A DNA stretch of 20,376 nt from a virus (lineage: Duplodnaviria > Heunggongvirae > Uroviricota > Caudoviricetes): positions 1-20,376 of IMG/VR virus record IMGVR_UViG_648276651_000003, one strand, 5' to 3'. Positions 13,301 to 14,025 of this stretch are shown here, piece after piece (position 1 is the stretch's first letter; each line of letters opens with the position of its first letter). The notes below the pieces were generated by a model, which did no database searches, was not told the origin of the DNA, and saw nothing but the letters and a program-made list of their open reading frames with translations. A program made the translations under genes and the position numbers.

Positions 13301-13355
13301 GCATGACAGCTGGCATTCAATTATCGCCTATGATGATGCTCTTTGATTTAGTTGC

Positions 13356-13364
13356 TGATATAAT
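13356..13364 (+). promoter_or_regulatory. Candidate extended -10 promoter (TGaTATAAT) for the AT-rich cassette
   Basis: ctgatataat read directly, with a perfect TATAAT hexamer at 13359-13364, about 20 nt upstream of the AGGAGGG RBS (13383-13389). Confidence 0.45.
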
Positions 13365-13395
13365 CCCCCCTAAATGAGTACAGGAGGGATTTGCG

Positions 13396-13704
13396 TTGTC
13401 CGCGATAAACCACATAAAAAACCCGTTAACGATTATCGGTATTTTTGCGGGGATAGTAGAGGTCTCTGCAAACCTCGTATTACCTTTTCTTAATGATTCA
13501 CAACAAAGTACATATCTTTGGTTTTTAATGTTTTTCCCTGCAGGGCTTGTAATAGTGTTTTTTTTGACGCTGAATTTTAATCATGTTGCACTTTATGCTC
13601 CAAGCGATTATAGCAACGATAGAGGATTCATGCAGGCCAATGGTAAAATGATCGGTAATGATGTCCAGGATACTGACGCAACGCAAGGCTTTGAATTAAC
13701 ATGA
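13396..13704 (+). CDS. Hypothetical membrane protein (about 102 aa, two predicted TM helices), gene 1 of the AT-rich cassette
   Basis: Start is TTG at 13396 with a strong AGGAGGG RBS 7 nt upstream (no in-frame ATG nearby); hydrophobic segments LTIIGIFAGIVEVSANLVLPFL and YLWFLMFFPAGLVIVFFLTLNF; acidic C-terminal tail. Confidence 0.5.
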   Translation: MSAINHIKNPLTIIGIFAGIVEVSANLVLPFLNDSQQSTYLWFLMFFPAGLVIVFFLTLNFNHVALYAPSDYSNDRGFMQANGKMIGNDVQDTDATQGFELT

Positions 13705-13967
13705 ATAAATTTATTTCAAACACTTTTAATAATACTATCGTCGAACTGGATGGCAACCATTACGAAAAGTGCGTTTTTGAAAATTGCGAAATTGTATATA
13801 AGGGGTTGCAGCCTTTTAATTTAATTAATTGTAATTTTATTGCATGCAAATGGAGACTTGAAGGTGCAGCATCAAACACAATTAACTTTTTAAAGATTAT
13901 GTATAAAGATATGGGGGAGTTTGGAAAGAAAATGGTAGAAGCCACTTTCGAAAACATAAAAAAATAG
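13701..13967 (+). CDS. Hypothetical small soluble Cys-containing protein (88 aa), gene 2 of the AT-rich cassette
   Basis: ATG overlaps the upstream stop (ATGA at 13701-13704); two C-x4-C pairs (KCVFENC, NCNFIAC); no family recognised. Confidence 0.5.
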   Translation: MNKFISNTFNNTIVELDGNHYEKCVFENCEIVYKGLQPFNLINCNFIACKWRLEGAASNTINFLKIMYKDMGEFGKKMVEATFENIKK

Positions 13968-13999
13968 TTTCATCCATTTACTTTCAGTTTATGAGATAT

Positions 14000-14025
14000 A
14001 GCCCTGCAATCGCGGGGCTTTTTTA
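14000..14025 (+). terminator. Intrinsic terminator closing the AT-rich cassette
   Basis: Hairpin agccctgc-aat-cgcggggct followed by tttttt (14019-14025). Confidence 0.6.

Follow-up and report, generated by a model that had tools for sequence, protein, structure and literature searches.

A mobile two-gene cassette in a Klebsiella-type prophage: a candidate split membrane protein of a widespread modular family

Classical morons and exclusion genes of lambdoid phages are represented by bor and lom of lambda, gp15 of HK97 and sieA of P22. The window analysed here, a 20,376-nucleotide stretch of viral DNA (IMG/VR record IMGVR_UViG_648276651_000003, positions 1 to 20,376), carries between its lysis and packaging genes a cassette of two small genes, g1 and g2. 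Similar to the classical examples, the cassette is an AT-rich insert in a late-region slot and encodes a small predicted inner-membrane protein, but it has no sequence relationship to them, and its modular family reaches far beyond enteric phages. Judging by sequence, g1 and g2 are the separated halves of one membrane-tethered protein. The moron is a known kind of feature, while its content appears undescribed, because Pfam, NCBIfam and PADLOC contain no family for any of the three linked domains and literature searches with accessions, PHROG identifiers and signature motifs returned nothing relevant. By their defining features, g1 and g2 do not belong to SNIPE, Hailong, Kiwa, the holins or Qnr-type proteins. 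By its architecture, its contexts and analogy, on which the assignment of a function class rests, the cassette is a good candidate anti-phage module; the reading tentatively preferred here is a lysogen-expressed sensor combined with a membrane effector for abortive infection.

Rip1 (ring-interacting pore) is also encoded by a prophage moron beside packaging genes and unites a membrane-active N-terminal part with C-terminal recognition of a phage protein. As described in a review (PMC13434031), Rip1 is reported to be non-toxic alone and differs from g1/g2 in its amphipathic helix, in place of a conserved two-helix hairpin, and in being a single polypeptide. SNIPE, a GIY-YIG nuclease bound to the membrane, cleaves the DNA of phages while it is being injected (PMC13190303). 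It resembles the commonest long form of the g1 family, described below, in having an N-terminal anchor followed by cytoplasmic DNA-directed domains, with tethering as part of the mechanism. However, SNIPE is single-pass and N-out and contains DUF4041 and GIY-YIG, whereas the module here is a predicted hairpin of two transmembrane (TM) helices; in SNIPE the nuclease is conserved and the N-terminus variable (PMC13190303), whereas here the N-terminus is conserved and the head varies. Neither DUF4041 nor GIY-YIG was found in g1, in g2 or among the families listed for 89 long forms.

The Hailong system, HalA/HalB, with a DNA-gated ion channel, likewise consists of two genes, and its membrane effector carries a regulatory part in the cytoplasm. 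The g2 protein weakly matches part of HalA, in NCBIfam at E = 0.0011 with 18.3 bits against a 250-bit cutoff, and in Foldseek (9nyi_A) at E = 0.76-0.99. Unlike in Hailong, no HalB nucleotidyltransferase (NTase) adjoins g1/g2, the neighbouring genes being Rz1 and an HNH endonuclease; the channel and crown of HalA form one 338-amino-acid (aa) protein with a different TM domain. Kiwa is also a two-gene operon of a membrane protein and a cytoplasmic partner, acting at the membrane during phage entry. It differs in both components: KwaA spans the membrane with four TM helices and includes a periplasmic sensor, and KwaB is large and binds DNA. No PADLOC Kiwa match was obtained.

The g1–g2 pair and its natural fusions

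Short forms of g1 (95-114 aa) were found in 47 loci, 41 of which contain a g2 homologue starting -9 to +1 nucleotides (nt) from the g1 stop. A g2 hidden Markov model recovered three more pairs, and one locus ends at a contig edge, so that 44 of 46 informative loci are paired. These loci span Enterobacterales, Pseudomonas and Steroidobacter. In at least nine proteins the two are fused: one locus (L069, protein P0258) encodes g1 and g2 in a single 194-aa open reading frame (ORF), the tail of which is matched by g2 at E = 1.2e-19; six further fusions (P0259-P0264) were found by homologue search and another (P0180) by profile search. In the combined alignment, g1 and g2 of the window are collinear with the fusions, and the split falls in the linker. 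The near-constant adjacency and the natural fusions are the grounds for considering the pair a split version of one protein. The g2 gene is translationally coupled to g1, since its start overlaps the g1 stop (ATGA).

The AlphaFold model of the fusion (predicted local distance difference test, pLDDT, 85.8 overall and >96 over the g2-like part) begins with the TM hairpin and two short helices around the motif YAPSD; a disordered linker spanning residues 86-100 then leads to nine short β-strands arranged as three coils, followed by two helices. The model of g2 alone agrees with it. At their C-terminus, most short forms have a short hydrophobic motif resembling a strand (QGFELT, GFDLS, GITWP and similar), which is absent from the fusions, and we infer that tail ends of the QGFELT type are a docking element for g2.

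Comparison of g1 and g2 with diverged copies of the cassette gave ratios of nonsynonymous to synonymous substitution rates (dN/dS) of 0.05-0.20, with no stops, although synonymous sites had reached saturation in the more distant pairs. Both g1 and g2 are real genes under purifying selection, since dN/dS is low, stops are absent and each has hundreds to thousands of homologues. The possibility that g1 is a truncated pseudogene of a 300-aa protein was rejected, given its conserved length in 47 loci, purifying selection and specific pairing with g2.

A pair of coupled genes may also be considered as an addiction or toxin-antitoxin module, in which g1 would be a membrane toxin, g2 its neutralising partner, and the prophage would be stabilised. 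The translational coupling, the weak TTG/GTG start of g1 in most short forms, the IS1 element that cuts g1 off from its promoter in one E. coli strain and the toxicity of HalA-type channels without their partner are consistent with it. Stable single-chain fusions of a toxin and its antitoxin, however, are not expected; most family members carry a nuclease, winged-helix, FHA or TPR domain at the position of g2, and no autoregulatory DNA-binding domain is present in g1/g2. Such a function is very improbable.

The two-TM module, the β-helix domain and their families

The g1 protein is predicted to be an N-in/C-in two-helix hairpin (approximately residues 10-32 and 38-60) with a 31-aa cytoplasmic tail ending in QGFELT. 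The two TM helices noted in the initial annotation were found again both by hydropathy and in the AlphaFold model of a natural fusion, where they occupy residues 11-32 and 35-62. In 136 members of the family the N-terminal tail contains on average 1.66 K+R against 0.42 D+E, and the inter-TM loop 0.35 against 1.25; since this charge distribution obeys the positive-inside rule, the N-terminus is predicted inside, the loop outside and the C-terminus inside. The periplasmic loop comprises about 7 residues, and neither a secretion signal nor a periplasmic domain is present.

The conserved part of g1 is an N-terminal segment of about 75 aa with the invariant residues N9-P10-L11, I16-F17-A18, E22, L44, F47-P48, L51, F55-F56, L59 and L66-Y67-A68-P69-S70-D71. 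The same invariant core is present in 89 longer proteins; in the alignments 13-20 columns, including the intramembrane Glu, are invariant. The g1 protein matches just positions 6-85 of the 303-position profile of phrog_26238, the function of which is unassigned in PHROGs. Models of SLATT, Saf-2TM and similar two-TM Pfam modules were found neither for g1 (E <= 1) nor among the families listed for the 89 long forms (E <= 0.01).

In a genome scan with one genome per species, at least 220 relatives of the module were found in Proteobacteria, Bacteroidota, Planctomycetota, Verrucomicrobiota, Acidobacteriota, Chloroflexota, Bacillota and Patescibacteria. Module identity in the 80 loci listed is 45-81%, or 45-68% without the three enteric ones. 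Over Proteobacteria, Bacteroidota, Planctomycetota, Verrucomicrobiota, Bacillota and Patescibacteria, the module retains 43-68% identity. A scan of viral contigs added 70 more relatives. The module forms the N-terminus of a 150-370-aa protein, termed here the long form, in 89 of 136 loci, and the C-terminal parts of these proteins fall into at least 15 unrelated clusters. The largest cluster of such heads (49 members) contains the motif E...FD(G/A)...(V/I)E(V/I)K, with D in 98%, E in 90% and K in 84% of members. This motif is typical of PD-(D/E)xK nucleases; matches to NERD, YraN and UpaP162 are weak, and a PDB profile search with the cluster gave nothing significant. Other heads are represented by winged-helix domains of the MarR/TrmB/IclR type, FHA and TPR. 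PADLOC searches with fusions and long forms gave scattered weak matches (E >= 4e-5), mostly to winged-helix or CARF models. By its predicted architecture, g1 is the short form of a widespread modular family, in which a constant module is combined with interchangeable cytoplasmic heads.

The AlphaFold model of g2 is a right-handed β-helix of three coils with 9 short strands (residues 1-53), followed by two α-helices that end in the conserved TFENIKK motif. Both C-x4-C pairs mentioned in the initial annotation exist (C24/C29 and C44/C49). Their spacing corresponds to the 5-residue periodicity of the predicted pentapeptide-like β-helix, and just C24 and C29 are conserved family-wide, C44 and C49 being replaced in homologues. 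A metal site is unlikely because only C24/C29 are kept throughout the family, and a zinc-binding reading of the pairs was rejected on the grounds of the pentapeptide periodicity and the replacement of C44/C49.

Structural matches of g2 in Foldseek are all weak (E >= 0.017, TM <= 0.4). The top ones are pentapeptide-repeat β-helices, namely, the luminal domain of SV2, QnrB1, AlbG and MfpA, with HalA ranking lower. Similar to pentapeptide-repeat proteins (Qnr, MfpA, AlbG/McbG, SV2 luminal domain), g2 is modelled as a right-handed quadrilateral β-helix with 5-residue periodicity; unlike them, it has only three coils and a two-helix cap with TFENIKK and forms a family of its own. Pentapeptide_4 scored 15.3 bits on g2 against a 38-bit cutoff and the Qnr model 14.7 bits against 240, so that no family threshold was reached. 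PDB profile searches with g1 and g2 gave nothing significant. The initial annotation had recognised neither protein, and indeed no described family was identified for them: Pfam, NCBIfam and PADLOC contain no model for g1 and none over threshold for g2.

These fold matches bear on a counter-defence function, in which g2 would be a pentapeptide-type DNA mimic that inhibits a DNA-targeting defence system or a topoisomerase, with g1 as its tether. Every fold match is a pentapeptide-repeat protein, and the DNA mimics Qnr, AlbG and MfpA are among them. However, all matches are weak, only three coils are present, membrane tethering and a lysogen-type promoter are ill-suited to an early anti-restriction role, and other members of the family carry nuclease-like and winged-helix heads. 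This function is the least probable of those considered and extremely unlikely.

An exhaustive profile search with g2 retrieved 2,572 representative clusters (defined at 50% identity) at E <= 1e-3 and 706 at E <= 1e-10. Most proteins with the domain are standalone, 90-110 aa in length. It also occurs as the C-terminal part behind other TM anchors (P0152, P0179, P0216 and P0257) and of soluble proteins (P0118, P0195, P0170 and P0129), and two copies are present in each of P0118 and P0200. The soluble partner domain is phrog_13198. A narrower g2 profile used for locus retrieval added just two new loci. A distant standalone homologue (L174:2586-3934) lies between two small proteins with C-terminal TM segments beside a CI/LexA-like repressor, which represents another moron hotspot, where the membrane partners are of another kind.

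Candidate function of the cassette

Under the preferred sensor-effector reading, the extended -10 element and the weak TTG start would provide low constitutive expression in the lysogen. The g2 protein would dock on the short cytoplasmic tail of g1 and form a membrane-tethered β-helix head, which would sense and bind a component of an infecting phage at the inner membrane face. Binding would release or assemble the two-TM modules, with their invariant intramembrane Glu, into a putative ion-conducting oligomer; the membrane would depolarise and the infection abort, in a design like that of Rip1 or HalA. This sequence of events is favoured because conservation peaks in the membrane module, which contains the invariant intramembrane Glu, and because most heads are binding domains. 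Contexts of the accessory, conflict type, the conservation of the promoter element along with the cassette and purifying selection on both genes also speak for it. A role of the module beyond that of an anchor is suggested by the fact that in SNIPE the anchoring N-terminus is the least conserved part.

A number of observations weigh against it. Searches of PADLOC-DB 2.0, the models of which include Kiwa, Zorya, Pycsar and the TM effectors of CBASS, gave no match for g1, g2 or the phrog_13198 partner. The commonest head resembles an intact PD-(D/E)xK nuclease, more naturally an effector than a sensor, which favours an anchor role of the module. Recognisable defence genes are a minority among the neighbours of the family (4 AAA_21 and 2 AAA_15 among 150). 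In the fusion model, the predicted TM-score (pTM) is 0.51, the linker is disordered, and the head is not predicted to be in fixed contact with the membrane module.

The main alternative, which the nuclease-like heads fit better, is exclusion of the SNIPE, Kiwa or Sie type, in which the two-TM module would only localise the head at the inner membrane, perhaps through binding to a conserved membrane component, the head would be active at genome entry and the cell would survive. Nuclease heads would cut and winged-helix heads bind the incoming DNA, and the target of g2 would be either a DNA-binding protein or a protein ejected by the phage. In favour of this, the E...D...ExK motif of restriction-fold nucleases is preserved in the dominant head cluster, which also has the weak NERD, YraN and UpaP162 matches, winged-helix heads are common, and the predicted topology places the heads in the cytoplasm. 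Furthermore, tethering of the nuclease in SNIPE gives exclusion and prevents self-damage (PMC13190303), and Kiwa pairs a TM protein with a cytoplasmic partner. Pure anchors, however, are normally poorly conserved, as in SNIPE, whereas here conservation is highest in the TM module with its invariant intramembrane Glu; no blocking activity is obvious for FHA and TPR heads, and a three-coil β-helix is short for a DNA mimic. Exclusion of this kind is rated as rather unlikely.

Genomic contexts of the family are accessory or mobile. No neighbouring gene is conserved among the long forms, for which the largest cluster of neighbours covers 5 loci, and the existence of conserved partner genes was rejected on the basis of this clustering. 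In phages, long forms adjoin genes of terminase, HNH or CI-like repressors. Flanks in genomes are mixed: some AAA_21/AAA_15 ATPases, integrases, transposases and AbiEi occur amid housekeeping genes. Three annotated examples are an island with Mrr, RES and NTase-type genes, an integrase island beside selAB, and a phage-plasmid, where the gene lies beside Rep and ParA. A natural fusion in a siphophage of the Gram-positive type is located between tail genes and holin/endolysin genes.

Many morons have roles in lysogenic conversion. For the cassette, such a role would mean modulation of the envelope or membrane, stress tolerance or virulence through a tethered binding domain, unrelated to defence. 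A moron with its own promoter-like element is consistent with it, as is the fact that the family is also found next to housekeeping genes in chromosomal regions outside phages. However, the exchange of heads on an unchanging module is a pattern characteristic of conflict systems, and the gene moves between the moron slots of phages, plasmids and islands of toxin or restriction genes. The lack of a secretion signal and of a periplasmic domain, together with the short loop, also argues against such a role. Lysogenic conversion is improbable.

The position of the cassette right after Rz/Rz1 inside the late transcription unit is compatible with an accessory lysis function, in which g1/g2, expressed with the late operon, would tune the timing of lysis in an antiholin- or holin-like manner. 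The siphophage fusion, located three genes 5' of the endolysin and two before a holin-family gene, and the N-in/C-in two-TM topology of g1, which fits class II holins, agree with this. On the other hand, g1 matches no holin PHROG, the window already contains two holin-family genes, an endolysin and both spanins, and sibling phages lyse without the cassette. Long forms in phages lie beside terminase, HNH or repressor genes, and the family is also found on plasmids and chromosomal islands. No lysis family was found among the 25 most frequent neighbour PHROGs of phage long forms, and a general link of the family to lysis genes was not supported. Accessory lysis is distinctly improbable.

An extension of the sensor-effector reading to the whole family is doubtful: the two-TM hairpin would be a new phylum-spanning membrane effector module of single-gene or split anti-phage systems, the interchangeable heads would sense different invaders, the g2-type helix would be a second, independently mobile sensor or adaptor that also combines with other effectors such as phrog_13198 and with other TM anchors, the cassette of the window the first split prophage example, and its slot in these Klebsiella/E. 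coli phages a swap site for members of the network. If the proposed function is true, the family would be a compact and very widespread addition to membrane-acting anti-phage systems, with the clear modular logic of a constant membrane module and swappable heads. The cassette could also affect the host range in phage therapy, since it is present in clinical Klebsiella and E. coli prophages. The g2 domain family links several otherwise unconnected proteins of unassigned function, and, whatever the function, the relation of split and fused forms lets annotators treat the two hypothetical proteins, and PHROGs 26238, 26297 and 13198, as one functional network.

The insert, its limits and the slot

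The coordinates of the features are given in Table 1. The AT-rich insert occupies 13301-13998 of the window in the Klebsiella-type prophage. Two holin-family genes (11585-12239), an endolysin and the Rz/Rz1 spanins are located 5' of it, and a small ORF (ATG 14138), an HNH endonuclease and the small and large terminase subunits 3' of it.

Table 1. Features of the cassette, its borders and the alternative gene in its slot (window positions unless a locus is named)
Feature	Position	Strand	Description
13-nt direct repeat, left copy	13288..13300	+	TCTAAAAGGATAA; last codons and stop of Rz1; at the left limit of the insert
Left-edge hairpin	13301..13339	+	Outer stem GCAUnAC/GAUnAUGC, inner GC-rich stem; covariation
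Extended -10	13356..13364	+	TGATATAAT (TGaTATAAT); from sequence; without recognisable -35
Shine-Dalgarno	13382..13388	+	AGGAGGG; 7 nt 5' of the g1 TTG start (13396)
g1	13396..13704	+	102 aa, TTG start; predicted inner-membrane protein; phrog_26238
g2	13701..13967	+	88 aa, soluble; phrog_26297; start overlaps g1 stop (ATGA 13701-13704)
Backbone junction with intrinsic terminator	13999..14131	+	Common to lambdoid phages without the cassette
13-nt direct repeat, right copy	14120..14132	+	TCTAAAAGGAAAA; just 5' of the ATG at 14138
Alternative moron in LV-2017	L156:4133-4828	minus	Unannotated 231-aa ORF; phrog_13198

The AT-richness noted in the initial annotation was borne out by windowed GC, which is 0.34-0.38 over approximately 13300-14050 and 0.50-0.59 on either side. 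The GC content of third codon positions (GC3) is 0.359 in g1 and 0.337 in g2 against 0.47-0.65 in 12 neighbouring genes, so that the composition of the insert is unlike that of its flanks by both measures. The codon adaptation index against the phage's own genes gave no information on g1/g2.

The insert had been annotated as starting at 13340; its left limit is in fact 13301, right behind the Rz1 stop. In blastn comparisons with cassette loci in other backbones, homology begins at 13295-13301 and extends either to the g2 stop (13966) or to about 14131 (range 14128-14141). The two copies of the direct repeat match at 12 of 13 positions and bracket the cassette together with the backbone junction, in agreement with the homology limits in other phages. 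The repeat may be a recombination scar or a chance occurrence: taken alone it is at about chance level, while its position is suggestive.

The intrinsic terminator at 14000-14025, which had been assigned to the cassette, is real and strong (stem 14000-14019 and T-run to 14025; 8 pairs, -17.5 kcal/mol, z = -4.0). However, segment 13999-14131 has 92.5% identity to phage mEp213, which is without the cassette, and is also matched in HK639, mEp043 and other cassette-free phages. Because of this shared segment, the terminator is backbone sequence and was rejected as a part of the cassette. The description as a self-contained two-gene moron is thus retained in respect of a mobile insert, but its terminator belongs to the backbone, and its genes are better regarded as a single gene split in two than as two separate functions.

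The closest phage relatives of the window are Klebsiella phage 1 LV-2017 (KY271401, L156) and about ten others. Relatives of the LV-2017 type have 95-96% identity to the window up to 11101 and from 14371, differ in diverged lysis genes and carry in the same slot a different AT-rich gene on the opposite strand. In P0118, P0195 and P0170, the g2 domain is fused to an N-terminal domain of which the product of this gene in LV-2017 is a homologue (E = 7e-24 and 9e-13). Since this product belongs to phrog_13198, the fusion partner of g2, the slot is filled in near-identical phages by two different partners of the g2 domain. The cassette and its upstream region were also found behind unrelated lysis modules and before unrelated packaging genes. 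The interval between the lysis and packaging genes serves as a moron slot for different genes, because unrelated backbones carry the cassette and near-identical phages carry another gene; its content thus varies at one and the same site among close relatives. The separate acquisition proposed in the initial annotation agrees with these distributions.

The cassette is present in 64 of 5,426 complete E. coli genomes with 80-99% identity, in all cases on the chromosome, and is annotated there as two hypothetical proteins. In one E. coli genome it follows a GH108 endolysin and precedes a PBSX-type terminase. In strain EC5 (L179, NZ_CP060969.1, ~700-1480), IS1A is inserted at the 5' end of g1; about 10 codons are gone and the promoter is separated, while g2 is intact. 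Near an integrase, the cassette was found with 75.6% nucleotide identity in OM284015.1 ('Elizabethkingia phage EKP1', L002). A host from Flavobacteriia is deposited for EKP1, yet the cassette is of the enterobacterial type and the lysis genes are lambdoid-style, so that the host assignment is doubtful.

About 95 nt 5' of g1 move together with the cassette. In alignable copies, which are approximately 68-75% identical to the window, the extended -10 element is kept as TGATATAAT, TGGTATAAT, TGTTATAAT or TGATATACT (11 alignable closer copies), and GGAGG/GAGGG is conserved at the position of the ribosome-binding site (RBS). A generic -35/-10 scanner called no + strand promoter at the insert, because the -35 is absent. 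Hence, of the promoter proposed in the initial annotation, the extended -10 stands and is conserved, but no -35 and no scanner call accompany it; the strong AGGAGGG RBS, the two genes and their ATGA overlap were all found where they had been annotated. Most short-form loci (L001-L040 looked at) start g1 with TTG/GTG and most long forms with ATG, as judged by approximate nearest-start calls. The TTG/GTG starts suggest deliberately weak translation of g1.

The left-edge hairpin comprises 13 pairs in alignment A9; compensatory changes occur in 6 of these, and pairing holds in 92% of cells; 0 of 500 shuffles reach the observed value, and slid controls collapse. It is degenerate in the window (-9.9 kcal/mol, z = 0.13), strong in relatives (-26.7, z = -3.96 in L011; -20.8, z = -4.8 in L075), and located about 20 nt 5' of the -10 element. 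It may be an insulating terminator, an RNA processing site or an operator. An Rfam search in and near the cassette gave nothing over gathering scores, and a known RNA at this place was rejected.

A second low-GC stretch (0.41-0.43) is located at 11050-11550, between the gene ending at 11029 and the first holin-family gene; neither a tRNA nor an Rfam family over threshold was found in it. No match to 11101-11541 was detectable in L156. The lysis region is a mosaic block, with 67% identity to L156 over the holin-to-Rz genes (11541-13264). The HNH endonuclease gene (14359-14709) lies directly 5' of the genes of the terminase subunits (14867-17119), which is a packaging arrangement of the HK97 type.

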